From: Thermoanaerobaculia bacterium
Lineage (GTDB): Bacteria; Acidobacteriota; Thermoanaerobaculia; Gp7-AA8
Assembly: GCA_038230535.1 (NCBI GenBank)
Contig: JBBRNB010000006.1
Span: 10,531-74,530 of the forward strand
Direction: 5' to 3'
Length of the DNA stretch: 64,000 bases
The stretch's first letter is position 1. Every line of letters begins with the position of its first letter. The notes under the pieces were generated by a model, which was given only the letters and a program-made list of their open reading frames with translations, searched no databases and was not told the origin of the DNA. This document shows, piece after piece, positions 2,686 through 62,820 of this stretch. The position numbers and the translations under genes were made by a program.

Positions 2686-2790
2686 TGGGAGTAGGGAGTG
2701 GGGAGTGGGGAGTGGAGTGGGGGGTGGGGGGTGGTGGGGGAGGTTCTGTTATTTCCTTTACGACCCCCTACCCCCCACTCCCCACCCCCG
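2686..2790. repeat. G-tract/C-tract palindrome (GGGAGTAGGGAGTGGGGAGTGG...GGTGGGGG / CCCCTACCCCCCACTCCCCACCCCC) in the divergent gatB/GGDEF promoter region
   Basis: Read directly: a run of GGGAGT-type units is followed by its reverse complement. The same motif family recurs at about 22275-22330, 35165-35245, 52462-52500 and 60515-60610. Confidence 0.65.
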
Positions 2791-6440: not shown

Positions 6441-6940
6441 GGCACGCCTTCGGCGTGCGTTTTCTGCGCTGCGCGCGTTGTCGGCGTTGCACGCGTTTTC
6501 TGCGCTGCGCGCGTTTTCTGCGCTACGCGCGTTGTCGGTTGTCGGTTGTCTGCGGCCTGCGGGCCGCGTTGGCGCGTACGCTCTCGATCCTGGACAAACT
6601 CGATCAGGCCTTGCAGAGGGGCGGCGACACGGCGAATCGAACTTCGGAGCCGCCTCCACGTATCGTCGTCGATGTACTCGAGCCGGTGGGCGGCGATCAT
6701 CTGCGCCTGAACCTCGTACAACGACCCGCGCGCATGGCTGAGAAACTGCCGCCATTCACCGGGAGACAACCGTCCTTGTCCTTCTGCGATGTTGCTGACC
6801 ACCGACACAACTGCCCGCCGAAGCTGCTGCGTCAAACCGAATCGCTCGTCTCGCGGAAAGGCCTTGGTTGTCTTGTAGATAGCTACCATCAGATCGAGAG
6901 AGCGCTTGAATGTATCGAGATCTTCAAATGACCTGGTCAT
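6437..6940 (-). CDS. four-helix-bundle protein ('23S rRNA intervening-sequence protein' family), with a C-terminal tail encoded by the flanking repeat arm
   Basis: MTRSFEDLDTFKRSLDLMVAIYKTTKAFPRDERFGLTQQLRRAVVSVVSNIAEGQGR... matches the PF05635/TIGR02436-type family. ATG at 6940. The last roughly 45 aa (QPTTRVAQKTRAAQKTRA...) are a translation of the GCGCGAAGCGCAGACAAC repeat. Confidence 0.8.
   Translation of the reverse strand: MTRSFEDLDTFKRSLDLMVAIYKTTKAFPRDERFGLTQQLRRAVVSVVSNIAEGQGRLSPGEWRQFLSHARGSLYEVQAQMIAAHRLEYIDDDTWRRLRSSIRRVAAPLQGLIEFVQDRERTRQRGPQAADNRQPTTRVAQKTRAAQKTRATPTTRAAQKTHAEGVP
6442..6470 (+). terminator. putative Rho-independent terminator of the amidohydrolase gene
   Basis: GCACGCC-TTCG-GCGTGC stem-loop followed by GTTTTCT. 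Confidence 0.5.
6458..6557. repeat. left arm of inverted tandem-repeat element (units like CGCGTTGTCGG / TTCTGCGCTGCGCG)
   Basis: Tandem copies that are the reverse complement of the 7028-7155 arm. The same family occurs at 8275-8345 and 49586-49945. Confidence 0.75.
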
Positions 6941-7027
6941 CGCGTTTTGCGGTGCTACGGAGAGGAACGAGAGCGATCGAAAACGCAAGAGGCGACCTGC
7001 CGGTCACTCGGTGGGAACCAAATCATA

Positions 7028-7155
7028 CCATCCCACCGCCACTGACAACGCGCGAAACCGCAGACAACGCGCGAAGCGCAGACAACGCGTGAAGCCGCAG
7101 ACAACGCGCAAAGCGCAGACAACGCGTGAAGCCGCAGACAACGCGCAAAGCGCAG
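7028..7155. repeat. right arm of inverted tandem-repeat element (CGCAGACAACGCG(C/T)GAAGC x about 6)
   Basis: Roughly 22-bp units in tandem, complementary to 6458-6557. Together the arms bracket the IVS-protein gene. Confidence 0.8.
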
Positions 7156-10924: not shown

Positions 10925-11050
10925 AATGAGATGGGGTAGGCAGAAAGCAGAAAGCAGAAAGCAGAAAGCAGAAATGCTGCGCTACGCCCCACGTTTCGGC
11001 GTAGCGCAGCATTTCTGCCTTCTGCTTTCTGCCTTCTGCTTTCTGCTTTC
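10925..11050. repeat. hairpin element with (GCAGAAA)n / (TTTCTGC)n arms; convergent terminator between the MbtH gene and the 11051-11941 gene
   Basis: GCAGAAAGCAGAAAGCAGAAAGCAGAAAGCAGAAATGCTGCGCTACGCC-loop-GGCGTAGCGCAGCATTTCTGCCTTCTGCTTTCTGC... Confidence 0.8.
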
Positions 11051-11941
11051 TCAACCCCTCTCTAACTCCGCCCGATCCCAACCACCCGCGGCGGCGGCGG
11101 CGGCGTAGGTAGACTGGCAGAAGCGGAGGAGGGCATCCTCCGGGTCGGACGACATGCGGACGGCCTCATACGGGAGGACGTACTCGGAGAAGGCGTCGCT
11201 GTAGAAAGCTTCCGCCGGTTCGACGCGGGCGTCCTTGAAGCCGGCCGGCTGCGGGGCGGCGTAGGCGTAGAACGCCGGCGCGGGGAAGGCGCCGCCGCCG
11301 GGCCACCATCCGCAACTGCTGACCTCGTGTGAGTAAGCTTCGCGCGTGATCGGATCGGCGTTCGGATTGTCCGGGGCGCGGCGGCCGGAGAAGCGGGTGA
11401 CGGCCATGTCGAAGCTGCCCCAGAAGAAGTGTACGGGGCTGCTCTTGCCGATGAACGACGCGCGGAACTGGTTCAACAGGCGGTCGGTGAAAATCAGGAT
11501 GCGCCGGAAGCGTTCGACGGCGTCTCGGTCGTATGATGTGTGCTCATGGTCTTCGGCGAACGGAATCGGGTTGTCGATCTCGACCGGGACCGGCCAGATC
11601 TTGACGTCGATGCCGCACTCATGGAGACGCGCCATCGTCTCGGCGTAGAAATCGGCGACGGAGCGAGGGACGAGCGGCACCCGTCCGTGGCGGCCGTCGC
11701 TGCAGCGGATGACGAGTTGGTGATCGATGAAGTCGAATTCGCAGTCGAAGACGCGGCCGCGATACGGGATCGCCGATGTGGTCAGGCCCCTCGCGCTGAC
11801 GTAGAGCGCAGTGTCCCACCAGTGGTTCACCCGAGGAGCGAGAGCGAGGCGGACCTTGCCGGCGATCTGCGTCCACATGTGCAGAGTGTCGCAGGTCGGC
11901 TTCCAATCTGGCAGCGGCAGGGGATCAAGATCGTTGATCAT
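11051..11941 (-). CDS. conserved hypothetical protein (possibly DUF5996-like; family assignment uncertain)
   Basis: 296-aa ORF with ATG at 11941 (MINDLDPLPLPDWKPTCDTLHMWTQIAGKVRL...). No catalytic motif recognised. Confidence 0.65.
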   Translation of the reverse strand: MINDLDPLPLPDWKPTCDTLHMWTQIAGKVRLALAPRVNHWWDTALYVSARGLTTSAIPYRGRVFDCEFDFIDHQLVIRCSDGRHGRVPLVPRSVADFYAETMARLHECGIDVKIWPVPVEIDNPIPFAEDHEHTSYDRDAVERFRRILIFTDRLLNQFRASFIGKSSPVHFFWGSFDMAVTRFSGRRAPDNPNADPITREAYSHEVSSCGWWPGGGAFPAPAFYAYAAPQPAGFKDARVEPAEAFYSDAFSEYVLPYEAVRMSSDPEDALLRFCQSTYAAAAAAGGWDRAELERG

Positions 11942-13094: not shown

Positions 13095-13230
13095 TTTGTG
13101 TTTTGCGGTCTCGCGGGGTGCTGGGTCTCGCGGTCTCGGGGTTGCCTGGTTGCTGGGTTGTAGGGTTGGTTCAACATCTCTCCGACAACCACGCAACCCT
13201 GCTACCGAGCAACTCCGCAACCTCGCAACC
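13095..13230. repeat. hairpin element of the GTTGCTGGGTTG / CAACCCAGCAAC family
   Basis: GGTCTCGCGG-containing loop flanked by CTGGGTTGC-type units and their complements (GCAACCCTGCTACCGAGCAACTCCGCAACC). Confidence 0.7.
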
Positions 13231-14072: not shown

Positions 14073-14240
14073 TGTCAGTGGATCAGTAGGTCAGTGGATC
14101 AGTGGATCAGGAACATGCTGGTCGTTGGGTCCTGATCCTGATTCTCTGGTCAACTCATCAAGTCGTTGTTTCGATCAGAAACGAGAGGTCTTCTGATCCT
14201 GATCCACTGATCCACGAACCACCGATCCACTCACTGAATC
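14073..14240. repeat. hairpin element of the GATCAGTG / CACTGATC family
   Basis: GTCAGTGGATCAGTAGGTCAGTGGATCAGTGGATCAGG...loop...CTGATCCTGATCCACTGATCCACGAACCACCGATCCACTCACTG. Confidence 0.8.
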
Positions 14241-18739: not shown

Positions 18740-18835
18740 ATTGGTCGATCAGTGGATTTAGCAGGTCTGTGGTTCAGGATCAGAAGCCCGCGATTCGATT
18801 CTGAATCAACTGATCTACGGATCTATCGGCTGAGA
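18740..18835. repeat. degenerate GATCAGTG-family hairpin
   Basis: GATCAGTGGATTTAGCAGGTCTGTGGTTCAGGATCAG...CTGAATCAACTGATCTACGGATC. Confidence 0.5.
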
Positions 18836-22674: not shown

Positions 22675-22835
22675 ACTTATTCGCAGAAAAAGCGTATGGT
22701 GTGGGCTCTTGAGGAACCTTCCTCAACCTTCAGGCCGCCTGAGCTGAGTCAGCGCTTCTGAACATCAATCTTCTTAGCAAACTACTTTTTTCAGGCTGCT
22801 CGAAGTGTGCGGCAGAAAGAACGGGAGTCCCTCTC

Positions 22836-23108: not shown

Positions 23109-23129
23109 TCAGAAAAGGAGCTTGTACTG

Positions 23130-23348: not shown

Positions 23349-23351
23349 GGG

Positions 23352-23378
23352 TCAGCGGATTGCGCTGACTTCTACCTC
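23352..23378. terminator. putative bidirectional terminator between convergent genes
   Basis: GGTCAGCG-GATT-GCGCTGAC stem-loop followed by TTCT. Confidence 0.45.
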
Positions 23379-24743: not shown

Positions 24744-24744
24744 G

Positions 24745-24920
24745 CGGTTGTTGGGTGGGTGGCTGGGTTTTCTGGTTGCTGAGTTGCTGGGCCGCCGCCG
24801 GATTCGTTGGCGGCGAATGATAAAGTCACTTGGCAACCTGGTAGCCGGGGAACTCGGCAACCGTCGAACCCGTCAACCTGGCAACCCTTAACCCAGCAAC
24901 CCGTAACCAGTAACCACACA
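24745..24920. repeat. hairpin element of the GTTGCTGGGTTG / CAACCCAGCAAC family
   Basis: GGCTGGGTTTTCTGGTTGCTGAGTTGCTGGG ... GGCAACCTGGTAGCC...CAACCTGGCAACCCTTAACCCAGCAACCCG. Confidence 0.7.
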
Positions 24921-24924
24921 ATCC

Positions 24925-25308: not shown

Positions 25309-25318
25309 AGGTTCAGCC

Positions 25319-26899: not shown

Positions 26900-27569
26900 T
26901 ACCCTTCTCGTTCCACACCTTCGACAACCGGTTGGCCGGCACTCCGGGCACATCGCCGCAATAGTGAGACGTGTCGTTGAACAGCGTCAGACGTGGATGG
27001 GTGATGTCCTTGAAGTCGAGGATGTTGAGAGCACAGGGGCTCTGGTCGAGGCGATCGCGGTACTTGCGGGGATCGAAGCCGAGGAGAGAGCTGAGGAGGA
27101 GGCGGATCGTCGCTTTGTGCGAGACCACCACGATCCGCTGGCCGTCATGTTCTTCGACGATCTTCAGCAGTGCCGGCAACGCTCGCGCCGTAACCTGGAG
27201 GCCACTCTCTCCCTCGGTCGGCGCAAACGAGAACGGGTCGGTCTCATAGCGTGCGTATTCTTCAGGGAACTCGTGCTCGACCTCGGCACGCGTCTTCCGC
27301 TCCCATCGGCCGTGCGCGATCTCGCGCAGTCCGTCGACGGGTGCGACCGCGAGGCCATGTGGTGCGACGATGAGGCCGGCAGTATCCATTGTTCGGGTCA
27401 TCGGGCTGGCGAAGGCGACGCTGATCGGCTCCGTTGCCAGACGCTGCCCGAGTAGCCGGGCCTGCTCGCGGCCTTCGTCCGAGAGCTGAACGTCGATGGC
27501 GCCGGCGAAACGGTCTTCAGCACTCAGTTCCGTCGCCCCGTGGCGGACGAGATAGACGCGGGTAGTCAT
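26886..27569 (-). CDS. histidine phosphatase family protein (phosphoglycerate mutase-like)
   Basis: LVRHGATE catalytic RHG motif at the N-terminus and a conserved H near the C-terminal third (VVVSHKATIR). Confidence 0.85.
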   Translation of the reverse strand: MTTRVYLVRHGATELSAEDRFAGAIDVQLSDEGREQARLLGQRLATEPISVAFASPMTRTMDTAGLIVAPHGLAVAPVDGLREIAHGRWERKTRAEVEHEFPEEYARYETDPFSFAPTEGESGLQVTARALPALLKIVEEHDGQRIVVVSHKATIRLLLSSLLGFDPRKYRDRLDQSPCALNILDFKDITHPRLTLFNDTSHYCGDVPGVPANRLSKVWNEKGTTSP

Positions 27570-27599
27570 CGGTTCAGCATCGTAGCAGACGGGAAGAGT

Positions 27600-27676
27600 G
27601 AGTGTAGAGCCGCCGCCCTCGAGGGCCGGGTGCCTGCGCCACGACGATGGCCGCCGAGGGCGGCGGCTCTACACTC
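27600..27676. promoter_or_regulatory. perfect 22-bp inverted repeat (GAGTGTAGAGCCGCCGCCCTCG ... CGAGGGCGGCGGCTCTACACTC) with a 33-bp spacer
   Basis: Read directly. Lies 31 bp upstream of the phosphatase start, in the 550-bp divergent region shared with the S1-protein gene. Confidence 0.6.
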
Positions 27677-27734
27677 TTGAAGTGGAGCAAGAAAAGCAAG
27701 GGCTCGCGATCCCTGATCTCGCGAGCCCGTTCTC

Positions 27735-27915
27735 GATCCGTTGACAGCCACCAGGGGGCATCCGAACCGACTTTGGTTCCGACGTCCTTTGCCCGTCGCA
27801 ACCGCTCGCCACGCGTTGACAGCCGCAAGGAAGCATCCGCGTGGCAGTCCCGGCACCCATCGCGTTCCGGAACCACCCAACCCGCCGTTGACATCTGCGA
27901 TGAAGCGTCCGGCGC
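27735..27915 (+). promoter_or_regulatory. three direct repeats of about 73 bp, each with a TTGACA hexamer (CCGTTGACAGCCNC.AGG.AGCATCCG); candidate tandem promoters or operator sites in the long leader of the S1-protein gene
   Basis: TTGACA at 27741, 27816 and 27888 with similar flanks. No clear -10 hexamer was identified. Confidence 0.35.
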
Positions 27916-28121
27916 GTCAGGGATCACCAATCTAGGTCCGCATTTCACGGTTCGCAAGGGGGGTACGAAAATAGTTTTTCGATGTCGCGGACTCAGTCGG
28001 CGGAGCCTCAGGCAACCGTCGCCGCAGGCCTGTCGCCAGGTTTCCAACTTTCGAGTAAGATACGCTGCCCAGCCGATCTCGCCGACCTTGAGATCCATCC
28101 CACTGAAAGGCTTTACGATCC

Positions 28122-29534
28122 ATGACCCAGAGTAGAGAAGCCGCCGAAGCAACGTTTGCCGAGGCGTTTGAAGCGAGCCTGAATTTCAAGACCCCTGAGC
28201 AGGGCGAGTTGCTCAAAGGACAGATCGTCTCGATCTCCGGAGACGATGCTTTCGTCTCGTACGGCGGACCATCGGAAGCGGTCATGGCAGCCAACGAGCT
28301 CGACGGGCTCGATGTTGGCGACACGGTCGAAGGGACCGTGGTCAAGACTTCCCCCGAGATCCGCATCTCACGCAAGCTCGCCAAGGGGAAGGCTTCTCTC
28401 GATCTGCTCCGGCAGATGTACGAGAACCGTCTGCCGGTGGAAGCGAAGGTGGCAGCCCGTAACAAGGGCGGCTTCGACGTGAACATCGGCGGTTTGCGGG
28501 CGTTCTGTCCGCTCTCCCAGATCGCCCTCGGCAAGATCGACAATGCTGACCAGTTCATCGGCCAGTCGTACGAGTTCCGGGTGACGGAGCTGTCAGACGA
28601 TGGCCGCCGCATCGTTGTCTCCCGGGCCGCGTTGCTCAAGGAAGCCAACGCTTCCCGCGCCGAGGAGACGAGACGCAATATCGTGCCCGGCGCCGAGCTC
28701 ACCGGCTCGATCAAGACCATTACCCCTTTCGGCGCATTCGTCGACCTCGGTGGGATTGATGGCTTGCTCCATGTCTCGGAGATGAGCCGGCGACGCGTTA
28801 CCGACCCGAAGGAAGTGGTCACGGTTGGCCAGGAAGTCCGCGTCAAGGTCATCAAGGTCGAGAACGACGGCAAGCGCATCTCGCTGTCGATGAAAGACCA
28901 GGAGCCTGACCCGTGGAGCGACGTCGGCGATCGGTATCCGGCCGGCACGCAGTTCAGCGGACGTATCGTCCGCACCACCGACTTCGGTCTCTTCGTCGAA
29001 GTGGAGCCCGGCATCGACGGGCTTGTTCACTACTCGCAGCTTCCCTTCGGCGTGAAGCAGGGCGATGCCGACATCGCCATCGGTACCTCGGTTTCCGGCT
29101 GGGTGCGTGAAGTCGATCCGTCGAAGAAGCGCCTCTCGCTTTCGCTTCGCGAAGTGGCCACGCGCGATCCGTGGGAAGGTGCCTCGCAGCGCTACCCCGC
29201 GGGCAAAGTGGTCGAAGGGACCGTAGATCACGGCGGTGCCCCGGGCATCTTTGTACAGATCGAACCCGGTCTTACCGGCCTGATTCCAAACTCCGAGATA
29301 TCCGTCGCGCCAGGTGCTGATCCGTCACGCGCGCATGAGGCGGGTGAGAAGCTCATGGTCCGGATCATGAACATCGACCCGCAGCGCAAACGCATCTCTC
29401 TCTCTCACGAGGCGGCCAAGGCCGCAGCCGAGCGCGATGAGTATGTGAAGTTCGCGGAAGAGCGCGGCGACAACGAAGCGGGCGAGAGCGCGATGGCTCT
29501 GGCCTTCAAACGTGCCATGGAGAAGCGGAAGTAA
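28122..29534 (+). CDS. S1 RNA-binding domain protein (30S ribosomal protein S1-like, about 5 S1 repeats)
   Basis: Repeated S1 motifs (G.IV....FGAFVDLGGIDGLLHVSE etc.). Long 5' leader. The rpsA assignment is tentative because the protein is shorter than E. coli RpsA. Confidence 0.8.
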   Translation: MTQSREAAEATFAEAFEASLNFKTPEQGELLKGQIVSISGDDAFVSYGGPSEAVMAANELDGLDVGDTVEGTVVKTSPEIRISRKLAKGKASLDLLRQMYENRLPVEAKVAARNKGGFDVNIGGLRAFCPLSQIALGKIDNADQFIGQSYEFRVTELSDDGRRIVVSRAALLKEANASRAEETRRNIVPGAELTGSIKTITPFGAFVDLGGIDGLLHVSEMSRRRVTDPKEVVTVGQEVRVKVIKVENDGKRISLSMKDQEPDPWSDVGDRYPAGTQFSGRIVRTTDFGLFVEVEPGIDGLVHYSQLPFGVKQGDADIAIGTSVSGWVREVDPSKKRLSLSLREVATRDPWEGASQRYPAGKVVEGTVDHGGAPGIFVQIEPGLTGLIPNSEISVAPGADPSRAHEAGEKLMVRIMNIDPQRKRISLSHEAAKAAAERDEYVKFAEERGDNEAGESAMALAFKRAMEKRK

Positions 29535-30394
29535 TGCGGGTCTTCGTCACTGGTGCAACGGGATACATTGGCAGCGCGGTCGTGCCGGCGTTAGGCGATC
29601 ACGGACATGACGTGACGGCGCTCGTCCGGCCGCAGACCGACTCGAAGAGTCTTCGCGATCGCGGCGTCGCGATCGTCGACGGGGACCTTGCGTCGCTCCC
29701 GACGCTGGCCAGTTCACTCGGCGGCTACGACGCCTACCTGCACATCGCGCAAGCGAACACCCCGGACGCCGCGGCTCTGAACCGTACGGCGTTGGATGTG
29801 TTTACCGCGCAGCCAGGCTTCCTGATCTACACCTCGGGTGTCTGGGTCTGCGGCAACACGAACAACCAGATCGTCGATGAGTCGACGCCGCCCAATCCAC
29901 TCCCCATCGTGGCCTGGCGTCCGGAACAGGAACAGGCGGCGCTGGCGACAGGACGGAGCGCGGTCCTGCGTCCGGGCTGCGTCTACGGCGGGAAGCAGAG
30001 TCTCTGCCGCGGATGGTTCGAGGCCGCCGAGCAAAAGAAGCCCCTGTATCTCGTGGGCGACGGCAACAATCAGTGGGCGATGGTGAACCTGCACGATCTT
30101 GCCGATTGCTACGTTCTTGTGACCGAGCAGCGCGCCACCGGCATCCTTCACGCCGTCGATGACACGAATGAAACGCTTCTCGGATGTGCTCTGGCGGCCG
30201 CGCCGGGCTCGGTGATCGAAACGATTCCGGTCGAGACCGCACGTGAGAAATACGGCGCCTTTGCCGACGCCCTGAACATCGATCAGCGTGTCTCGAGCAC
30301 CGCCACGCGCCGAAAGATCGGTTGGAAACCTTCACGCGATTTCACGGACTCGCTGGACGAGCAGTGGGCGGAGTGGAAGAGTATCCGAGGTTAG
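29534..30394 (+). CDS. NAD(P)-dependent epimerase/dehydratase (atypical SDR/NmrA-like)
   Basis: N-terminal VTGATGYIGSAV Rossmann motif. TAATG overlap with the upstream S1 gene. Confidence 0.85.
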   Translation: MRVFVTGATGYIGSAVVPALGDHGHDVTALVRPQTDSKSLRDRGVAIVDGDLASLPTLASSLGGYDAYLHIAQANTPDAAALNRTALDVFTAQPGFLIYTSGVWVCGNTNNQIVDESTPPNPLPIVAWRPEQEQAALATGRSAVLRPGCVYGGKQSLCRGWFEAAEQKKPLYLVGDGNNQWAMVNLHDLADCYVLVTEQRATGILHAVDDTNETLLGCALAAAPGSVIETIPVETAREKYGAFADALNIDQRVSSTATRRKIGWKPSRDFTDSLDEQWAEWKSIRG

Positions 30395-30590
30395 TAGTCG
30401 ATCAGTGGGCTGGTCGATCAGTAGATTGGTCGATCAGTAGATCAGAAACATGAAACCTGATCCTGATCCACTGATCCACCGCGGTCCCTGATCCACTGAT
30501 CTACTGATCCACTGATCCACTGATCCACTGATCCACTGATCCACTGATCCACCGCGGTCCCTGATCCACCGATCACTGATCCACAGCATC
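30395..30590. repeat. large hairpin element of the GATCAGTG / CACTGATC family
   Basis: GTCGATCAGTGGGCTGGTCGATCAGTAGATTGGTCGATCAGTAGATCAG...loop...(CCACTGATC)x6. Confidence 0.85.
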
Positions 30591-31451
30591 CACCGCCTTC
30601 AAGAACCCAATCATCAACTCATTCACTTTCCCTGGCGCATCGGTCTGGACGAAGTGACCAGCGTCGGGGACGTGCTCGAGACGGAGGTCGGGGACGTACT
30701 CGCTGAAATCGCGCAGAGTCTCCTTCGTGAAAAACGGATCGAGATCGCCCCAGATCATCAAGGTCGGGATGTCGATGCGGCGAATCAAGCCGCGCATCGG
30801 TTTGCGGTGCCTCATGGCGCGGTAGTAGTTGGCCATGCCGGTGAGCGCGCCGGGCTTCGCCCATGCCTCGACATACCTCTCGATCTCCTCGGAGGTGAAG
30901 CAGCCGAGTCGTGACATGGCACGGCGCAGGACGGCGTAGCGGAAACGGCGCAGGACGAATTCCGCCAGCCATGGCAGATGGAAAAGGAGCTGATACTTGG
31001 CCCGCCACTTCTGCCGCGCCGACCGCCGCAGCTCGCGCAGGTATGTCACCGGATGCGGCGAATTGAGGATGATGAGACGGCTGACCAGCTCAGGATAGAG
31101 CATCGCCGTCAGCCAGGCCACGGCGCCACCCCAGTCATGGCCTGCCAGCGCGCACGGTGCGTCGCCACTCTGCGCGATCACGCCCGCGATGTCTTTGGCA
31201 AGCTCAGTAAGGCGGTAGGCGTCAATTTCCTGAGGCCTGGATGAGTCGTTGTAGCCCCGCAGGTCGACTGCGATGACGTGAAAGCCCGCCGCGGCGAGCA
31301 CCGGAATCTGATTCCTCCACGAATACCAGAACTCCGGGAAACCATGCAGCAGCACGATGAGCGGACCGCTCCCCGCCTCGACATAGTGGATGGTCATGCC
31401 GCCGACCTCGCACGTACGGTCGGTGACACTCAGTTCCGAAACCAGCTGCAT
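30573..31451 (-). CDS. alpha/beta hydrolase (epoxide hydrolase-like)
   Basis: HGFPEFWYSWR, GHDWGG nucleophile elbow and a C-terminal DAGHFV catalytic His. ATG at 31451 (MQLVSELS). The 162-codon upstream ORF extension translates the 21-bp repeat as heptads and was not annotated as coding. Confidence 0.85.
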   Translation of the reverse strand: MQLVSELSVTDRTCEVGGMTIHYVEAGSGPLIVLLHGFPEFWYSWRNQIPVLAAAGFHVIAVDLRGYNDSSRPQEIDAYRLTELAKDIAGVIAQSGDAPCALAGHDWGGAVAWLTAMLYPELVSRLIILNSPHPVTYLRELRRSARQKWRAKYQLLFHLPWLAEFVLRRFRYAVLRRAMSRLGCFTSEEIERYVEAWAKPGALTGMANYYRAMRHRKPMRGLIRRIDIPTLMIWGDLDPFFTKETLRDFSEYVPDLRLEHVPDAGHFVQTDAPGKVNELMIGFLKAVDAVDQ

Positions 31452-31611
31452 TGAGACATTGTATGGGAGCAGAGGAGGAGCCCACGCGAATGACTGTTGC
31501 CGGCCGAAGTCTGTGTCTGGGTTTGCGCGCGGGATCTCGCGAGCGAAGGTGCCGCTCCGCGGCACGCATTCGCCGTCTGTTTTGGGTTGGGGGGCACCAG
31601 CCCGCGCTGTG

Positions 31612-31905
31612 AAACGCCTGGCGCACACTGTCAGCCGGTGGCGCGCACTGTGAGCCGGGTGGCGCGCACTGTGAGCTGGGCGGCGCGCACTGTGAGCCGG
31701 GTGGCGCGCACTGTGAGCCGGGTGGCGCGCACTGTGAGCCGGGTGGCGCGCACTGTGAGCCGGGTGGCGCACACTGTCGGCCGGGCGGCGCACACTGTGA
31801 GCCGGGTGGCGCGCACTGTGAGCCGGGTGGCGCACACTGTCGGCCGGGCGGCGCACACTGTGAGCCGGGTGGCGCACACTGTGAGCCGGGCGGCGCACAC
31901 TGTGA
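31612..31905. repeat. 21-bp tandem repeat x about 14 (GGCGCGCACTGTGAGCCGGGT and variants)
   Basis: Read directly. The period is exactly 21 bp and sits in frame with the downstream hydrolase ORF, giving PAHS(V/A)R(H/R) heptads on the minus strand. Confidence 0.9.
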
Positions 31906-32248
31906 ATTGGGGTGATTGCCCTGCGGGCGGGATACACACCTTCGGCACCCTTCGACTCGCTGCGTTCGCTCAGGGCAGGCTCTTCTCCCCGCTGCGGAGG
32001 GGAGAAGGCGATCGATTGTAAGTTGTTGTTATAGCTGCACTTTCACATCGATGCCCCTCGCCCCACGAAGTGGGGAGAGGGAGACACGGACCCTGAGTGC
32101 AGCGAAGGGGGAGTGCGGGTGAGGGGCTGGAGTCAAGGCCTGAAGCCGGGGGGCTACGGATCTCATGCCGGCTCCGTCGGCGAAGACGAGCCAAAACATA
32201 CGCATGGCTCTTCGCACGACCGAATCGTCCGGACTCCAGTCCCTCTAC

Positions 32249-32575
32249 TCAATCCTTCTTCAGCGCCGCGTTGATCAACAGCCCCGCACCGACGGCGACG
32301 ACGGCAACACCGGCGGCTACTTTGCCCGGATTCTCCTTGGCGTACGTCGTCGCCTTCTCGCTGCCGGCCTTGAGGTAGTTGCGGACGGTGTTGAGGTACT
32401 CCTCAATATCGATTTCCTTGATCGACGTTTTGAGGTTGGCGATCATCTCTTCGCTGATGCCGAGGCGGCTGAGGAACTGGTCAAGCCCGCTGTTTGTCGC
32501 CGCGGCGCGTGACTGTCCGCAAGTCGGGCAGTATCCGGTCGTGTCCGGCGTCGATTCAGTCATCGGTGTGTCCAT
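32249..32575 (-). CDS. small membrane-anchored protein (N-terminal CxxC pair, C-terminal TM helix; YqjD/ElaB-like topology)
   Basis: CPTCGQ near the N-terminus and ENPGKVAAGVAVVAVGAGLLINAALKKD at the C-terminus. ATG start. Confidence 0.55.
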   Translation of the reverse strand: MDTPMTESTPDTTGYCPTCGQSRAAATNSGLDQFLSRLGISEEMIANLKTSIKEIDIEEYLNTVRNYLKAGSEKATTYAKENPGKVAAGVAVVAVGAGLLINAALKKD

Positions 32576-32639
32576 ACTCGTAATCTCCTGTTCGGAATCC
32601 AGTTGGGGAAAGACTACTGCAAGAGGGAAGCCGTGAATG

Positions 32640-32700
32640 AGTCGATCAGTGGATCAGACGGCGTGTTTCTGATCCACTGATCTACCAACCCACGGATCGA
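32640..32700. repeat. short GATCAGTG-family hairpin
   Basis: GTCGATCAGTGGATCAGACGGCGTGTTTCTGATCCACTGATCTAC. Confidence 0.6.
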
Positions 32701-32725
32701 CCGCAAGAACCACCCGACCCAACCC

Positions 32726-33922
32726 TCACTTCCGATACGTCACCCGCCAGATCTTTCCGGCTCCGTCATCGGAGATGAGAAGCGATCCGTCGCCGAGGAC
32801 GAGCAGACCTACGGGGCGGCCCCAGACATTGCGGCTCGTCTCGTCGGTCATCCAACCGGCGACGAAATCGTCGTAGCCACCGGTGGGGCGTCCGTTTTTG
32901 AACGGGATGCTGATGATTTTGTAGCCGGTGCGCCGCGAGCGGTTCCAGGAGCCGTGCAGGGCGACAAAGGCGCGGCCGCGGTATTCGGGCGGAAACATCG
33001 TCCCCTGATAGAAGGCGATACCGAGCGGTGCGGAGTGAGACTGGATCGGCACCGATGGGGGAATCGTTTTCCTGACCAGGTCGGGGCGCTCGCCGGCGCG
33101 GCGCGGATCCTCGTTTGCGCCAAGGTAGGCGTACGGCCAGCCGTAGAACGCGCCGGGCTGCACGCTGGTGGCGTAGTCAGGGACGAGATCGTCGCCGAGG
33201 CCGTCGCGCTCGTTCACCGCGGTCCAGAGAGCGCCGGTCACCGGCTCCCAGGCCATGCCGACCGGGTTGCGCAGGCCGGAGGCGAAAATCCGTTTGCCGC
33301 TGCCGTCCGGATTGAGCTCGAGGATGGCAGCGCGCTCGAGCTCTTCCCCCGAGTTGACGTTGGAGTGCGAGCCGACAGAGACGTACATCTTCGTCCCGGT
33401 CCGGTTGAACAGGACGCCACGCGTCGAATGACCGCCGGACGGCAGAGGGATGATCTGCTCCGGCTTCCCGTTTGCGGTTGTCTGGCCTGCCGCGTATGGA
33501 AAGCGGACGACGGCGTTTTCGTTGCCGGCGTAGAGCCAGCGGCCGTGAAAGGCGAGCCCGTAGGGATCGTCCAGACCGCTGGCGAATGTGAATCGCTGGT
33601 CAGCCACGCCGTGGTGGCCGGAGTCACGGAGGATGGTGATCTTCCCTTCGCCCGGTTCGGAGAGAATTACGTCCCCGTTCGGCGCTTGAAGCATTGCCCG
33701 CGGATTGCCGAGCTTCTCGGCAAAGAGGGTGATGCGGAACCCCGGCGGCAGGTGCAGCGTCGCATTGACGGGTTGTGCGCCGACGATTGGCGGATTCCCC
33801 GAGGAAGTCGTGGCGTACGGCTTCGGCAATTGATCGATGCGAATCTCATGATGCTGAAGTAGTGGATCGGATGGTGCGGTGACAGCGGCGGCGATGGCTG
33901 CGATGAGTAGAAGGCGTGTCAT
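32726..33922 (-). CDS. PQQ-dependent sugar dehydrogenase (soluble glucose/sorbosone dehydrogenase-like beta-propeller)
   Basis: Signal peptide. Motifs DPYGLAFH, GGHSTRGVLF, GLRNPVGMAW and HGSWNRS are typical of YliI/sGDH-family propellers. Confidence 0.8.
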   Translation of the reverse strand: MTRLLLIAAIAAAVTAPSDPLLQHHEIRIDQLPKPYATTSSGNPPIVGAQPVNATLHLPPGFRITLFAEKLGNPRAMLQAPNGDVILSEPGEGKITILRDSGHHGVADQRFTFASGLDDPYGLAFHGRWLYAGNENAVVRFPYAAGQTTANGKPEQIIPLPSGGHSTRGVLFNRTGTKMYVSVGSHSNVNSGEELERAAILELNPDGSGKRIFASGLRNPVGMAWEPVTGALWTAVNERDGLGDDLVPDYATSVQPGAFYGWPYAYLGANEDPRRAGERPDLVRKTIPPSVPIQSHSAPLGIAFYQGTMFPPEYRGRAFVALHGSWNRSRRTGYKIISIPFKNGRPTGGYDDFVAGWMTDETSRNVWGRPVGLLVLGDGSLLISDDGAGKIWRVTYRK

Positions 33923-34118: not shown

Positions 34119-35138
34119 ATGCCCCCCTCCCCACCCACCTGGCAATTCGAAGGCGTCGTAAGGCTGACGCGCATCGGCACCTCGTTTGTCGTCTTCACAG
34201 TCGTCATCGGGTTCGCGGCCATCAATACCGGCAACAACTCTCTCTACATCGGGCTCTCCTTCCTGCTCGGTTGTCTGCTCCTGTCGGGCATCGCTTCGAA
34301 GGGCGGTCTCGAGCATCTCGTCGTGGAGCTCGACGGCATCGACGAGGCGTGGGCGATGCGGACGGCGCACGGGCGGCTTCGCATCATCAATCGTTCGCGG
34401 ATCTGGAACGTGCGTGACGTGATTCTGACTTCTGACGACCTGGCCGCACCGCTCTCCCTCCCGCTGATCGAGCGCCGCGGCGAGGTCGTGGCACACGCGC
34501 AGTTCCGCTTTCGCCGCCGCGGCCTCGTGCAACCCAGCCGCGTCGGTCTTTACACCCGCTACCCGTTTGGCTTTTTCCTGAAGAAGCGCCGCGTGCGGCT
34601 GTCCGGCGATGTCGTCGTGTTTCCCCGGCTTCTCGACGAGGATGTTGTTCGCGATCGTTTTCGTGCGATCGAAGGGGAGTTGCATTCATCCAACCGCGTT
34701 GGCGGCGGTACCGAGCTTCACTCTTTTCGCGACTACGTCCGCGGCGACTCTCTCCGCCGGGTCCACTGGAAGAAGTCCGCATCCCTCGGGCGCTGGATCA
34801 TCAAGCAGACCGAGATCGAGGCCGGCCGATCGGTACACGTCGTCGTCGACCCGTACCGGCCGGGGGGTGTGAGCGAAGAGGAATTCGAAGAGATGATCAG
34901 CGAGGCCGCGACGTTCCTCGATGGCGCGCTGCGAGGGGAGCTCGAGATCGCCTTCTCCATCCCTGCGATGACCCTTCGTTCTGACCGTGATACCGAAGCG
35001 TCGATGTTCCGCGCTCTGGCGTTACTCGAAGCGACGCGTGAGCCGATTGCTCAGGTGGTCGATGGGGATAGCGTTGTGTTTAGCGTGTCGCAATACGCGC
35101 GTGTCGGGAGTCGGGTGCCGGGGGTCGGAGGTGGCTGA
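34119..35138 (+). CDS. DUF58 domain protein
   Basis: DSLRRVHWKKSASLGRW matches the D.R.IHW..SAR DUF58 motif. Two N-terminal TM helices. Start taken at the ATG at 34119; the track start is a TTG at 34041. Confidence 0.8.
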   Translation: MPPSPPTWQFEGVVRLTRIGTSFVVFTVVIGFAAINTGNNSLYIGLSFLLGCLLLSGIASKGGLEHLVVELDGIDEAWAMRTAHGRLRIINRSRIWNVRDVILTSDDLAAPLSLPLIERRGEVVAHAQFRFRRRGLVQPSRVGLYTRYPFGFFLKKRRVRLSGDVVVFPRLLDEDVVRDRFRAIEGELHSSNRVGGGTELHSFRDYVRGDSLRRVHWKKSASLGRWIIKQTEIEAGRSVHVVVDPYRPGGVSEEEFEEMISEAATFLDGALRGELEIAFSIPAMTLRSDRDTEASMFRALALLEATREPIAQVVDGDSVVFSVSQYARVGSRVPGVGGG

Positions 35139-35283
35139 CGTGGAGCGGCGCTTCTCGAGAGAGACAGAGGTCTTGTCTGCGGGAGTCGGGGGGCGGGCGT
35201 CGCGCGTCGGAGAAGCTGTCTCCGACCCCCGACCCCCGACAGCCGGCACCCGTCATCGCGACCTCGAGCTCCTCTTCTTCACA

Positions 35284-41006: not shown

Positions 41007-41135
41007 TTCTGGGTCTCGTGGTTGCCGAGCTGCTCGCATAGGTTGCCAGGTTGCTGGGTTGCTCGGTACGCTGCGCGGAATGGTTACTTCCAAGAACGGG
41101 CAACCTGGCAACTCAGCAACCCAGCAACCAACCAA
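41000..41135. repeat. GTTGCTGGGTTG / CAACCCAGCAAC-family hairpin; the right arm overlaps the cinA start region
   Basis: GGTTGCCAGGTTGCTGGGTTGCTCGG...GGCAACCTGGCAACTCAGCAACCCAGCAACCAACC. Confidence 0.7.
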
Positions 41136-46439: not shown

Positions 46440-46590
46440 GTGTGAATCAGTGGGTCAGTGGATCAGTGGTCAGTGGTCAGTGGGTCAGTGGGTCAGTGGG
46501 TCAGTGGGTCAGTGGACGGACAGAAACAGCATTCTCCCGATCTACCGATCACGAATCGACTGATCCACTTGATTACTGCCTCATCGCAAC
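46440..46590. repeat. GTCAGTGG-family hairpin inserted between dxr and rseP
   Basis: (GGTCAGTGG)x8 ... GATCTACCGATCACGAATCGACTGATCCACTTGA. Confidence 0.8.
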
Positions 46591-47744: not shown

Positions 47745-47880
47745 GTGGATCGGTCGATCAGCGGCTGGTGGTTCAAAGCAGTGGATCGGTCGATCAGTCG
47801 GCCAGTGGATCTGGATCAGAATACCAAGTGTTCCTGATCCGCTAGTCTACCGATCCACTAGTCTGCTTATCCACTGATCC
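47745..47880. repeat. GATCAGTG-family hairpin (degenerate) between cdsA and dxr
   Basis: GATCGGTCGATCAGCGGCTGGTGG...CAGTGGATCGGTCGATCAGTCGGCCAGTGGATCTGGATCAG...CTGATCCGCTAGTCTACCGATCCACTAG. Confidence 0.65.
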
Positions 47881-49585: not shown

Positions 49586-49945
49586 AGCTTTGTGGTTAAT
49601 TGCACTTTGTTGTCTGCGCTTCGCGCGTTGTCGGTTGCCGGTTGTCTGCGCTTCGCGCGTTGCCGGTTGCCGGTTGTCTGCGCTTCGCGCGTTGCCGGTA
49701 GTCGGTTGTCTGCGCTTCACGCGTTGCCGCACCGAGAGGGGCGCGAAGGTGTAACCATCGCCCGACGGGCCGCTAACGCCCAAAGGGCAGACAACGTGCG
49801 AAGCGCAGACAACGCCCAAAGGGCAGACAACGCGCGAAGCGCAGACAACGCCCGAAGGGCAAACAACGCCCAAAGGGCAGACAACGCGTGAGCGCAGACA
49901 ACGCCCGAAGCGCAGATAACCGACAACGCGCGAAGCGCAGACTAC
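49586..49945. repeat. cargo-less palindromic element of the GCGCGAAGCGCAGACAAC family (tandem-repeat arms in inverted orientation around a roughly 50-bp centre)
   Basis: Left arm (GTTGTCTGCGCTTCGCGCGTTGCCGGTTGCCG)x4, right arm (GCAGACAACGCGCGAAGCGCAGACAACGCCCAAAGG)x4. Same family as the arms flanking the IVS-protein gene at 6458-7155. Confidence 0.85.
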
Positions 49946-49952
49946 GAAGGGC

Positions 49953-60981: not shown

Positions 60982-62700
60982 ATGCGTCTCCGGATCATCG
61001 TGCCGCTTCTCATCGCGCTGCTCGGCTCTCCGCAGCTCGCGCGCGGTTTCAGCGGCCCGTGCTGCGATTTCTGCACCGATCAATACCAGCAGGAAGGACA
61101 GTTCCCTTACTTCGAGGTGATCCGCACACGCCGGTTGATCATCAACGGAGACATCGTTGGTGGTCAGGGGTGGAAGCGCGTCTTCGAGAGTTGCGAGCAG
61201 GCGGGGCGGGTCAACATCACCGCATCGACCGAGGTCACTGTTGTCGCACGCGCCTACCTCGAGATTGCTGAGCCGAGCACGCCGGGCGCCGGCATCGAGT
61301 ACCGTTGGCTGCTCGACGACGTGCCCGTCGGTCCGACGTTTCATTTTCTTGCTGGCCGGGCCGGGTTCCCGCAGGGGGATGACATCAACATCGTTCTCCC
61401 GCAAGTACCTGCCGGACAACATCGCGTGGCCATCGACGGGCGCGTGACCGGCGACGGCCGTATCAGTTTCCGGCTCCTCTTCATCACCGCGCAAGGGTTT
61501 CCATCCGCCGCGTTTCCGAGTGATTCGCTGATCGTCTCGAGCAGCAGGACGATTGGCAGCGATTGGACCGAAGTGAGTCCTTCGCTCGGCCTTTCTCTGC
61601 CGCAGTCAGCGCACCTCTACTTCCAGGGGTATGTCGAATTCGCAGGCGGCGAGACAGTCAATTTCCGTTACGTGGTCGATGGTATTCCTCTGACGCCCTT
61701 GCGCGTCGTCATCCCGCCTGGTGGTGGCCTCAGCCTCTGGGATCACCTCGGCGACCCCATCGCGGCCGGCGCGCACAGCGTCCGGCTGGAGGGGCGCGCG
61801 GACTCTCCGGCGGTGATGACGCTCGCGCAGGTCGAAGCCGCGACGGGACCGGCGACGATCCAGAACAAGCCGTTGCCAGTGTTCAATGCCGATGTGAACG
61901 GCTCGCTCGGTACGGATCATCAGCCGCTCAACTGCCTCATCCTCGCCGAGGGGGCTTCCGGAGGGACGGGTGGGTTGGGCGGGACGCCCGCGTGCGGTAA
62001 GTACGACCTGCTATTCGATGCCCAACTGCCGGCGGCACCGCTCACATCGTCGGGGAGCGCCTTCGATGATTACACCGCGTTTGGCGACGGCTTTGTCGAG
62101 ATCGAAAACCGGAGCGGCACGAACGGAGTGGTCACGCTGACCGTCGAAGCGATCTACGAGGATGCGAGGGCGGGCGCCTGCAACGCGCTCGTCGAAGCGG
62201 CAGATACGGCATGCGCGAATCCGAGTGCCTGTTCGACGGCCGACTTCACGCTCGTCGAGTTCGCTGTACCGCCCGGCCGCACGCAGAAGTTCTTCTATGT
62301 CGATCCGATTCACTGGGGCTCTTTGGCGCCGAATCGCATTCGTCTCTGGGCGCGCTCGCAGAACGGCTGCGGCTCGGCTCCTGTCGGCCTGACATTCGGC
62401 CGCAGCCGCCTGGGCATGCAGCTCGTTCCAGCCGGCAACGGATCCTGTTTCTCCGCGCACGCGACGGGGCGCGCCGCGGCACCAGCGGTATCGGTATCGG
62501 CAGCGGGCTCGAAGGTTCCGCTCCGACCCCATCAGCGTGACCGTGCCACCGATCGCGCCGCGACGGCGAAGTGCGGGGAATTGATGCTGTCGGTCGATCA
62601 GTGGATTGGTGGATCAGTGGATCAGTGGATCAGTGGATCAGTGGATCAGTTGATCAGTGGGGCAGTGGTCAATGGTCAGTGGGGTCAACGACCCAGTTGA
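60982..62700 (+). CDS. secreted Cys-containing hypothetical protein whose C-terminus is encoded by GATCAGTG repeats
   Basis: Signal peptide MRLRIIVPLLIALLGSPQLARG. ATG 4 bp after the dnaE stop. The last roughly 35 aa (SVDQWIGGSVDQWISGSVDQLISG...) translate the hairpin arm. Confidence 0.6.
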   Translation: MRLRIIVPLLIALLGSPQLARGFSGPCCDFCTDQYQQEGQFPYFEVIRTRRLIINGDIVGGQGWKRVFESCEQAGRVNITASTEVTVVARAYLEIAEPSTPGAGIEYRWLLDDVPVGPTFHFLAGRAGFPQGDDINIVLPQVPAGQHRVAIDGRVTGDGRISFRLLFITAQGFPSAAFPSDSLIVSSSRTIGSDWTEVSPSLGLSLPQSAHLYFQGYVEFAGGETVNFRYVVDGIPLTPLRVVIPPGGGLSLWDHLGDPIAAGAHSVRLEGRADSPAVMTLAQVEAATGPATIQNKPLPVFNADVNGSLGTDHQPLNCLILAEGASGGTGGLGGTPACGKYDLLFDAQLPAAPLTSSGSAFDDYTAFGDGFVEIENRSGTNGVVTLTVEAIYEDARAGACNALVEAADTACANPSACSTADFTLVEFAVPPGRTQKFFYVDPIHWGSLAPNRIRLWARSQNGCGSAPVGLTFGRSRLGMQLVPAGNGSCFSAHATGRAAAPAVSVSAAGSKVPLRPHQRDRATDRAATAKCGELMLSVDQWIGGSVDQWISGSVDQLISGAVVNGQWGQRPS

Positions 62701-62820
62701 TCAGTTGACCTGATCCACCGATAACCGATCCACTGATCACCGATCACCGATCCACCGATCCACCGATCACCGATCCACTGATCGACTGACCCACTGATCC
62801 ACTGATCCACCGATCGACAT
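62590..62820. repeat. large GATCAGTG / CACTGATC-family hairpin
   Basis: (GGATCAGTG)x6 ... loop ... (CCGATCACCGATCCAC)-type units and CCACTGATCC copies. Confidence 0.85.

Follow-up and report, generated by a model that had tools for sequence, protein, structure and literature searches.

The question raised by this 64,000-nucleotide (nt) stretch of a genome of soil Thermoanaerobaculia (contig JBBRNB010000006.1; 62% G+C; hereafter the window) is what to make of seven hairpins scattered between its genes, each composed of a tandem array of GATCAGTG-like units, a loop, and a tandem array of CACTGATC-like units. The initial annotation, made from the letters of the window, had likened them to repetitive extragenic palindromic (REP) elements, bacterial interspersed mosaic elements (BIMEs) or MITEs (miniature inverted-repeat transposable elements). 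We found that this account is partial, as GATCAGTG is one of many unit families with a common architecture, both in the window and in the lineage. The GATCAGTG copies are best read as one family in a lineage-wide class of 'tandem-unit hairpins' (7-8-nt units, about four per arm, with a stem of about 26 base pairs (bp)), and are best seen as neither terminators, nor REPs, nor Dam-site clusters. To the reading that the seven elements are inserted hairpins akin to intervening sequences, selfish or near-neutral in nature, lacking an open reading frame (ORF), evolved by slippage and probably substrates of RNase III, we assign a probability of about one half. The seven copies are given below with the z-scores of their predicted RNA folds, calculated for the + and the - strand separately against 100 dinucleotide shuffles per copy; arrays were called with Tandem Repeats Finder (TRF).

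14073..14240, copy 1: between a csgG-like gene (13096-14010, +) and the stop of a DUF4097 gene (14231-15673, -), both by Pfam; TRF arrays 14075-14110 and 14199-14231; fold of 14070-14240, z -5.4 (+) and -6.3 (-).
18740..18835, copy 2: degenerate; starts with GTCGATCAGTGG; directly 3' of a TPR gene (18848-19711, -); fold of 18738-18838, z -2.7 (+) and -0.9 (-).
30395..30593, copy 3: between convergent genes for an epimerase (29534-30394, +) and an alpha/beta hydrolase (30573-31937, -); fold of 30395-30595, z -5.6 (+) and -8.4 (-).
32641..32701, copy 4: the shortest; termini GTCGATCAGTGG...CCACGGATCGAC; 3' of a GSDH-like gene (32726-33922, -); fold of 32638-32705, z -4.3 (+) and -4.8 (-).
46440..46580, copy 5: fills the 142-nt dxr|rseP spacer; left arm (GGTCAGTG)x8, right arm short and degenerate; fold of 46440-46580, z -2.9 (+) and -1.1 (-, the mRNA strand).
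47745..47880, copy 6: fills the 146-nt cdsA|dxr spacer; fold of 47745-47882, z -6.2 (+) and -4.8 (-).
62590..62820, copy 7: the largest, with 11 + 13 units; termini GTCGATCAGTGG...CCACCGATCGAC; a DUF6526 gene lies downstream; fold of 62590-62820, z -12.1 (+) and -14.3 (-).

On both strands of the window, GATCAGTG has 28 exact matches, compared with 2.87 expected from dinucleotide shuffles, and none of 100 such shuffles reached this number (maximum 10). The sites of the family were picked up by TRF and by an inverted-repeat finder, and the same order was read at all seven of them: the GATCAGTG-like array, a non-repetitive loop and the CACTGATC-like array, with the G-rich arm on the 5' side in each case. 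RNA folding, which the initial annotation had proposed as a check, was carried out, and all seven copies folded below 100 dinucleotide shuffles on at least one strand, with best-strand z-scores from -2.7 (18.7 kb) to -14.3 (62.6 kb). The match counts, the reading of the seven sites and the folding results indicate that the hairpin family is real.

The copies are 61 to 231 nt long, and their loops are unrelated to one another. The unit is an 8-mer (TRF period 8) with the consensus GATYAGTR; in GATCAGTG, G never occurs three or more times in a row and there is no dyad symmetry except GATC, so that palindromy is a property of the whole element only. Arms carry about 2 to 16 units rather than the three to eight per copy first described: about two at 18740 and 32640, 11 and 13 at 62596-62815, and, in copy 3, about six in the left arm with a 16-nt super-period and 16 in the right arm (30463-30593). 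The simple symmetry of units followed by their complements does not hold either, since the arms are often unequal and not mirror images, as at 46447-46515, where (GGTCAGTG)x8 faces a short degenerate arm. An inner variant unit, GATCAGRAA...TTYCTGATC, recurs among the copies and across genomes; GTCGATCAGTGG forms the start of four of the seven window copies, and copies 4 and 7 additionally end in ...GATCGAC. The dense clustering of GATC that had been pointed out was confirmed, with one GATC per 15 nt within the elements compared with one per 105 nt outside; but not every unit carries it (GGTCAGTG and GATTGGTC do not), and the suggested Dam sites are incidental. Outside the elements, GATC is slightly over-represented in the window (602 observed, 482 expected under a first-order model); given that it is not depleted there, nothing points to a restriction system directed at GATC.

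All seven copies are intergenic, between protein-coding genes, and their placement at gene ends, including two copies in the dxr-rseP operon, agrees with what had been noted before. The copies at 14.1 kb and 30.4 kb lie between convergent genes, that at 32.6 kb lies 3' of a gene, and that at 62.6 kb lies between two + strand genes; the 18.8-kb copy counts as convergent only on condition that ORF 18274-18702, which is doubtful, proves to be real, and is otherwise 3' of the TPR gene. Copies 5 and 6 are within uppS-cdsA-dxr-rseP, at dxr|rseP and cdsA|dxr, respectively. Dxr (46573-47736, -) is 80-90% identical to proteins of metagenome-assembled genomes (MAGs) of Thermoanaerobaculia (Acidobacteriota); Dxr, RseP and CdsA were identified via orthologues, the epimerase separately, and the other named window genes by Pfam scans of 51 called ORFs. 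These scans returned no transposase, RAYT (the REP-associated tyrosine transposase), Y1_Tnp domain or reverse transcriptase. No Rfam match at gathering thresholds, no rRNA and no tRNA or tmRNA gene was found in the window. By translation, the final codons and the TGA stop of the hydrolase gene come from the last units of copy 3 (30573-30593), and an unannotated ORF upstream of copy 7 (60982-62700) runs through the left arm of that copy (...SVDQWIGGSVDQWISGSVDQLISG...*), with about 35 array-encoded residues (SVDQWIGGSVDQWISG...) from 62596-62700. No T-run resembling the U-tract of a terminator was read after any of the seven copies, and a promoter and terminator scan of 13500-33400 called none of copies 1-4, though it did call a canonical bidirectional intrinsic terminator at 14038-14057 (AAAAAGCGCCGCTGTTCGCAGCGGCGCTTTT), 15 nt ahead of copy 1. 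As this terminator adjoins copy 1, the hairpin is not required to terminate the csgG-like gene.

We then compared the GATCAGTG copies with other repeats of the window. At least six hairpins beyond the GATCAGTG family are alike in build and have other 7-8-nt units; these, together with one single array, are as follows.

2687..2789, hairpin: GGGAGTG x7 / ACCCCCC x4, between divergent gatB (-) and GGDEF (+) genes.
10940..11051, hairpin: GCAGAAA x5 / TTTCTGC x5.7, arms 96% complementary, at convergent MbtH-like / DUF5996 genes.
13139..13230, hairpin: GGGTTGCA x3.8 / CAACCCCG x5.6, of the GGTTGC family.
35098..35255, hairpin: GTCGGGA / CCGACCC.
41039..41129, hairpin: TAGGTTGC x3.6 / GCAACCCA x3.8, between ABC-F and cinA; the C-rich arm stops 6 nt before an ATG.
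49602..49952, large ORF-less hairpin: GTTGTC...GCGCTTCGCGCG / CGCGCGAAGCGC...GACAAC family, filling the truA|uppS spacer.
24861..24915 (+), single C/A-rich array: GCAACC type, immediately 5' of an apaG-like start codon, with the look of a 3' arm that stands alone.

The class was surveyed in 1.14 Mb of DNA, comprising the window, 80 relative loci from a metagenome scan with Dxr (76-94% identity), four dxr loci obtained by exact protein look-up (L087-L090; loci are cited by our L numbers) and five loci of Thermoanaerobaculia from GTDB. A hairpin was called when a TRF array of period 6-9 had a reverse-complement partner array on its downstream side at a distance below 200 nt. In all, 109 hairpins were called, or about one per 10 kb, and they represent 58 distinct units. 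In the window, TRF pairing gave eight hairpins with six different units. Period 7 was found in 80 of the 109 and period 8 in 24; four units was the mode of arm size (108 of 218 arms), and the median hairpin was 86 nt in total with 26 inter-arm base pairs (interquartile range 20-29). The distance from the hairpin edge to the adjacent stop codon had a median of 2 nt and that to the adjacent start was about 9 nt, indicating that the edges are flush with stop and start and that the whole spacer is filled.

The orthologous junctions of the dxr operon showed that these hairpins come and go. Filled and empty sites were compared by anchors, and whole-locus pairwise alignments gave 10 clean indel events after filtering. 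Spacers at cdsA|dxr were bimodal, either at most 7 nt (often a 4-nt ATGA overlap) or mostly 73-238 nt, the outliers being two lone-array alleles (37 and 43 nt) and a value of 396 nt that is unreliable. Filled spacers were present in about 40 of 75 relatives at cdsA|dxr and in about 27 of 78 at dxr|rseP. Where the window has copy 6, the relatives have the 4-nt ATGA overlap, a 2-7-nt spacer, or a hairpin with a different unit family, and the fillers of this one junction represent at least 15 unit families plus a few non-tandem palindromes. The units include GGCAGAA (the family of the 10.9-kb hairpin of the window), ACCAGAA, GATYAGTG, GGATGAA, CGATGAA, GGACTGA and GGCATGA-type units, as well as GTGCTGA, CGGTTGG, CCGTTGG, GGTTTCA, AAAATTG, AAAGGTN and AGAGATC. 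At dxr|rseP, the GATYAGTG hairpin is common to many relatives with at least about 89-90% Dxr identity, with differing unit numbers, indicating that some copies persist; relatives that are more distant or 'empty' have a spacer of 2-23 nt. Near-identical coding flanks occur with and without a hairpin in L096-L100 versus L101/L104, and again in L131/L135 versus L126/L127 and L132/L136/L143. The 'empty' allele of L134 has bare tandem GGTATAAGGTATAA at the position of the L139 hairpin.

Some of these fillings retain traces of the event by which they arose. In seven independent fillings of the ATGA-overlap junction, ATGA is present on both sides of the insert, and in L132/L136/L143 the insert is flanked by the 7-nt direct repeat CATGAAA; the duplicated sequence at cdsA|dxr ranges from 4 to 7 nt. 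The retention of ATGA on both sides suggests that some target duplication is part of the insertion event. A further insert, an 89-nt near-perfect hairpin at L143:19621-19709 that is absent from L136, has a 3' end that is the inverted left flank (CGCTAAGTT / AACTTAAGCG), which looks, from its letters, like the signature of a snap-back or template switch.

One element of the window carries a gene between its arms:

6453..7155 (-), ORF-bearing element: inverted arrays 6453-6550 and 7044-7155 around a gene.
6578..6940 (-), four-helix-bundle gene (23S_rRNA_IVP, S23p): PF05635, Pfam E 8.8e-32; NCBIfam TIGR02436, E 3e-30.

The arrays of this element are of the same family as the ORF-less hairpin at 49602-49952, and its arms pair with -151 kcal/mol in RNAduplex (z -7.1, beyond all 100 shuffles). 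The protein also has a distant match to DivGenRetAVD (Avd) at E 2.7e-4, below the model cutoff; the Avd-like four-helix-bundle family acts as a reverse-transcriptase cofactor in diversity-generating retroelements. Across the window and eight homologous loci, the gene lies within complementary arrays at seven of the nine loci (the window and six of the eight), which represent at least four genomic sites and two phyla. The enclosed genes outside the window are those of L172, L174, L175, L176 and L177, at a minimum of three further sites in Thermoanaerobaculia, and of L059, a Chloroflexota MAG with GGGACTA/TAGTCCC arrays; in L171 and L173, only the 5' arrays remain. All eight arm pairs beat 100 shuffles (z -5 to -11), and the order was constant: the 5' G/T-rich arm, the gene in sense, and the C/A-rich arm. 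The window ORF continues into the 3' array up to 6437 by translation, and in 68 of 120 homologues the C-terminal tail is a translated heptamer array, tails such as TDNRQPTT and TGNRQPAT being translations of (GACAACC)n or (GGCAACC)n. Since the C arm of GATCAGTG has TGA in all frames, translated GATCAGTG arrays cannot show up in such tails. A tblastn search with the four-helix-bundle protein found no additional copy in 1.1 Mb of dxr loci. The contigs carrying homologues of the gene are mostly under 3 kb.

This arrangement is reminiscent of the intervening sequences of 23S rRNA. That of Coxiella burnetii is a 428-nt selfish element with a 28-bp terminal stem, a 5' arm of two or three GACAGAT tandem heptamers depending on the strain, and S23p encoded in the loop, and it is excised by RNase III (PMC4990558). 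The intervening sequences of Coxiella, Leptospira and Salmonella resemble the hairpins studied here in their terminal inverted repeats (28 bp in Coxiella, a median of 26 bp here), in arms of heptamers (7-8-nt units here) whose copy number varies between strains or orthologues, in the existence of both ORF-bearing (S23p/PF05635) and ORF-less forms, and in being sporadic, and they are regarded as selfish. The anatomy thus matches that of intervening sequences in the lengths of stem and unit, in copy numbers that vary, and in the two forms with and without an ORF. The differences are that those elements lie in helices 25 and 45 of 23S rRNA whereas the hairpins here lie between protein-coding genes, that excision by RNase III has been demonstrated there and would apply here by analogy, and that no GATCAGTG copy with an ORF was seen.

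The hairpins also share a polarity; since a palindrome is identical on either strand, having the G-rich or the C-rich arm in front are two different states. The 5' arm contains more G than C in 96 of the 109 hairpins; among distinct units whose G and C counts are at least 2 apart, G-first units number 29 and C-first units two, and the GATYNGTN family at all loci gave 22 versus one. By site type, the ratio of G-first to C-first was 67:8 at co-directional, 11:1 at convergent and 6:2 at divergent sites. Single arrays are closer to whichever flanking gene lies 5' of their own G-rich strand (median 27 versus 70 nt). Several ideas about the hairpins were considered and dropped. The polarity holds at convergent sites as well (11:1), so that start-codon context or avoidance of Rho cannot be its whole cause. 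A stop-codon barrier does not apply, as pure GATCAGTG and GGCAGAA arrays are stop-free in the G arm. For Shine-Dalgarno or anti-Shine-Dalgarno mimicry (GGTGATC versus the 16S 3' end), the motif order is wrong and the motif is absent in other families, and quadruplexes were rejected for units without G-tracts. Telomere-like 3' addition at breaks agrees with the polarity but has nothing else in its support. Dam or restriction clusters were rejected as well, with GATC not depleted outside the elements and sister families devoid of GATC.

How would such elements arise and be kept? In the mechanism that we propose, a hairpin enters a gene boundary with a short target duplication; presence and absence of hairpins at the same junction were observed, and the ATGA duplication at one junction. 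Its arms would then lengthen, shorten and homogenise independently through replication slippage, which we infer from the inequality of the arms, from stretches made up of a single variant unit, and from what differs among relatives. Loss or replacement was observed over short evolutionary distances. The insertion may be tolerated when the arms pair into a long transcript stem between a stop and the next start, a geometry that the positions show directly; the flanking cistrons would thereby stay intact, and the stem would bring the stop close to the start that follows it. Stems of 20-30 bp are of the size that RNase III cuts, and by analogy with 23S rRNA intervening sequences the transcript stem could be clipped by this enzyme. 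As for kinship, sister families in the same genomes have a four-helix-bundle gene in their loops, just like ORF-bearing intervening sequences, from which the GATCAGTG copies are best taken for the ORF-less part of a class of selfish or near-neutral DNA that is akin to intervening sequences.

Several observations weigh against this reading. The arms are unequal, and copy 5 reaches only z -1.1 on its mRNA strand, so that pairing is not strictly maintained. No ORF was seen in any GATCAGTG copy, with no search aimed at ORF-bearing GATCAGTG copies made, and the four-helix-bundle link is limited to the GTTGTC/GCGCTTCGCGCG, GGTTGCC and GGGACTA families. Neither nuclease nor transposase activity is known for the four-helix-bundle protein, and the 51 window ORFs scanned yielded no enzyme that would mobilise the hairpins. 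Target duplication is documented at the cdsA|dxr overlap only, with no clear duplication at other sites, and at a stop/start overlap selection would discard insertions without one. Several filled alleles are no clean insertions, in that the spacer has been replaced together with the final codons of the gene upstream. The cdsA|dxr units GGCATGA, GGATGAA, CGATGAA and GGCAGAA are similar to the junction GGCATGAA, which is compatible with birth in place. The element ends differ between genomes and the loops are unrelated.

Some of these points would follow naturally if the hairpins were mutational by-products made in place, by slippage of a gene-end heptamer or octamer and then a fold-back template switch that inverts the array, in which case nothing moves and shared units are shared gene-end sequence. 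The dominance of period 7 (80/109) recalls the heptamer excess ascribed to slippage (reviewed in PMC4679880), the arms expand independently, arrays often begin within the stop or the last codons (-10 to 0 nt), and the likeness of the cdsA|dxr units to GGCATGAA, the bare tandem GGTATAAGGTATAA of L134 opposite the L139 hairpin and the inverted left-flank copy that closes the L143:19621 insert all fit. We nevertheless consider an in-place origin unlikely, because one family occurs at unlinked sites with unrelated flanks (seven in the window; GGCAGAA at 10.9 kb and at two other junctions in relatives), because the GATCAGTG family is present in other genomes and phyla, and because the copies of this genome share the inner variant unit and the terminal GTCGATCAGTGG; moreover, fold-back predicts both polarities, whereas 29 of 31 skewed units are G-first, and the four-helix-bundle genes in loops are left unaccounted for. 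Rather less probable to us is a selected regulatory RNA, in which stem-loops would terminate transcripts, shield 3' ends or adjust the expression ratio of adjoining cistrons, as shown for some REP elements. Strong stems in strictly intergenic positions abutting stop and start codons would suit such a role, the dxr|rseP hairpin is old enough to be common to relatives down to 89% Dxr identity, and a terminating ribosome would be expected to melt the stem base, expose the next start and keep translational coupling. But the copies have no U-tract, the terminator scan called none of copies 1-4, and copy 1 sits beside a canonical terminator; the same junctions are hairpin-free in close relatives, unit families are freely exchanged at one junction, arms drift from complementarity (copy 5, z -1.1 on the mRNA strand), and the G-first polarity is kept even without a downstream gene (convergent sites, 11:1).

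Two further explanations start from the sequence of the unit. REP/REPIN elements mobilised by RAYT, a Y1 HUH transposase, as in Proteobacteria, are likewise dispersed intergenic inverted repeats, and the tag of REPs, GT[AG]G (PMC3733652), is found in all units. In the hairpins, however, this motif is repeated and lies inside the predicted stem, REPs being recognised by an unpaired GTAG or CGTC tag at one stem end (PMC3733652), the unit is an 8-mer rather than a 20-40-nt imperfect palindrome, the architecture is common to dozens of unrelated unit families, and no Y1_Tnp domain was found in the 51 scanned window ORFs. The transposition of HUH elements (IS200/IS605) is not expected to duplicate its target, and the duplication at cdsA|dxr is thus a further point against REPs, which we regard as very improbable. 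Equally hard to credit, and if anything more so, are protein-binding DNA arrays, whether GATC clusters for Dam/SeqA-type proteins or restriction, or heptad operators of ribbon-helix-helix proteins. The GATC density in the elements (one per 15 nt) and the ATCAC cores in the C-rich arm (GATCACC heptads at 62730-62775; AATCACT in L047 and L076) speak for them, and parS of pSM19035 reportedly consists of WATCACW heptad arrays bound by omega, which the arrays here may resemble. That possible likeness covers only five bases; sister families with identical architecture have neither GATC nor ATCAC, GATC is not depleted outside (602 observed versus 482 expected), and the sites are gene ends and operon interiors, not promoters.

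Among known systems, the closest in appearance are the heptamer arrays of Xanthomonas. There, GGGAATC heptamers (GGGGAYT in Nostoc) form 70-75 inverted pairs per genome that are 'always' convergent with the G-rich array 5' and mostly have four units (Rehm et al. 2015, PMC4692102); about 90% of the arrays are intergenic, the arrays lie near the ORF that is located 5' of their G-rich strand, and array length differs between close relatives (PMC4692102). The hairpins here share with them tandem intergenic units in the 5-11-nt range, convergent G-first arrays and about four units per array, and the lone arrays share the gene-proximity bias (27 versus 70 nt). In contrast to Xanthomonas, the units here are mostly without G-tracts and cannot form quadruplexes, dozens of unit families occur per genome rather than one, the octamer GATCAGTG is found, and the phylum is Acidobacteriota; the junction turnover and the four-helix-bundle link found here were not reported there. 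A crystal structure of S23p comes from Xanthomonas campestris (PMC4990558), a member of the very genus that carries the GGGAATC arrays.

Other families resemble the hairpins in part. REP, BIME and REPIN elements are also short, abundant, strain-polymorphic inverted repeats at gene ends and have a repeat-flanked protein gene (RAYT there, the four-helix-bundle gene here), but the hairpins differ in the non-palindromic unit, the slippage-prone tandem arms, the absence of a Y1 transposase from the window and the duplicated target at one junction. MITEs share the inverted arms, a non-autonomous look, presence/absence polymorphism and a short target duplication (at one junction). As the arms of the GATCAGTG copies are inverted repeats, they have the terminal inverted repeats (TIRs) by which MITEs are recognised; unlike MITEs, the hairpins have no fixed length, termini or interior, nothing that could be a parent element was seen, and numerous unrelated 'TIR' families occur together. 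No cognate transposase is known for these hairpins. Of the likeness to REP/BIME or MITE elements first proposed, what stands is the genomic niche of dispersed intergenic hairpins at gene ends, and what is not supported is membership, given the unit, the lengths, the loops and the absence of a transposase from the scanned window ORFs. TAACTGA repeats occur in Beggiatoaceae, Cyanobacteria and Bacteroidetes, with 169 direct and one inverted in BOGUAY (MacGregor 2015, PMC4679880). They and the cyanobacterial short tandemly repeated repetitive (STRR) heptamers are, like the repeats here, intergenic, start-codon-adjacent, patchy across phyla and assembly-breaking; but TAACTGA arrays are direct almost throughout, whereas the paired hairpin form is the rule here. 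Units of 5-11 nt have reportedly been treated as 'long simple sequence repeats' by Mrazek et al. in 2007. The hairpins do not have the defining properties of REP/REPIN elements, classical MITEs or intrinsic terminators; by analogy, they would work like intervening sequences, and they look like the inverted heptamer pairs of Xanthomonas. The impression that the family has no recognised name was borne out by the searched literature, in which we found no paper on these arrays or on repeats in Thermoanaerobaculia. New here are the GATCAGTG octamer family and its host phylum. Three further points go beyond the cited papers: many families replace one another at single junctions, arms of four units and the polarity are kept where units lack G-tracts, and four-helix-bundle genes are associated with the arrays.

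We further studied the spread of the family with a contig scan that used three units. Most of the matches listed were one-directional arrays in Actinomycetota and other groups, which are probably unrelated to the GATCAGTG hairpins or coding, and the genome of the window itself was not among the matches listed. The GATCAGTG family was found, among the matches listed, in three Thermoanaerobaculia genomes of GTDB (L008; L012/L030/L069; L018) and in the Bacteroidota MAGs L047, L076 and L062. The family is present in relatives and in these three genomes, and is hence not restricted to the window, a restriction that the initial annotation had named as a reason to abandon its description. GATYAGTG / GATCAGT hairpins with unchanged polarity lie at L047:797-950 and L076:2475-2704 (MAG HyVt-532, labelled Bacteroidetes), and another, with the G arm 5' as in the window, at L062:1263-1384 (a Saprospiraceae MAG). 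The heptamer form in HyVt-532, TCACTGA, and the TAACTGA repeat discussed above differ by a single base.

It is tempting to extend the reading of the GATCAGTG copies as intervening-sequence-type insertions to all of these repeats. Tentatively, and with more doubt than confidence, we propose that tandem 7-8-mer hairpins are the ORF-less majority of one widespread mobile class whose autonomous members bear S23p, with the 23S intervening sequences as the case that landed in rRNA, and with the heptamers of Xanthomonas, Cyanobacteria, Beggiatoaceae and Bacteroidetes included. If so, G-first polarity and four-unit arms would be traces left by an intermediate, single-stranded DNA or RNA, that is strand-specific and on which the four-helix-bundle protein acts. 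Two puzzles, the intergenic heptamer repeats that often form convergent pairs and the 23S intervening sequences with S23p, may then be one, as they occur in the same genomes with the same anatomy. That non-quadruplex units keep four-unit arms and polarity argues against the quadruplex rationale offered for Xanthomonas. The cdsA|dxr junction, with at least 15 hairpin families or none among close relatives, constitutes a natural experiment for gain, loss and effects on expression. In practical terms, the hairpins break short-read assemblies and mislead ORF callers, as seen in the array tails of 68 of 120 homologues and in ORF 60982-62700.

Several other repeats were observed along the way. The short-read contig L001 (Logan SRR19962015, 12.9 kb), the only one with the epimerase gene of the window, stops about 100 nt into copy 3. 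Expansion of one arm was seen at L111:5193-5300 (GGTCGGG/GGTCGGA, more than 100 nt) and at L113:5231-5404 ((CGACACC)x12), where the L098/L109 orthologue has 3-5 units. Another palindromic element of about 130 nt (GCCTGGGAGCGCGGGCGTCTCGCCCGC...GCGGGCGAGACGCCCGCGTTCCCAGG), with the direct repeat CGCGCGCCTTCCA at either end, lies at L098:16469-16600, L105:16500-16630 and L109:15997-16098, and is polymorphic between close relatives. Within the window, a 39-nt unit (alternatively 78 or 117 nt) is repeated 4.7 times at 12210-12426, in ORF 12107-13030 (-), for which Pfam gave no match. At 9797-10031, eleven tandem units of 21 nt (CGATGCCTAAAAGTTAGGGAT), each with its own small palindrome (CCTAA...TTAGG) and GATC, lie in the 430-nt divergent region between a TPR-S gene (8392-9696, -) and ORF 10125-10640 (+), and by its letters this array resembles an iteron or operator array. 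Finally, 13.7 tandem copies of another 21-nt unit (TGGCGCACACTGTGAGCCGGG, 91% matches) occupy 31619-31905 in ORF 30573-31937 (-), ahead of the alpha/beta-hydrolase domain (Pfam from residue 192), and may be a 7-residue protein repeat or a non-coding leader.

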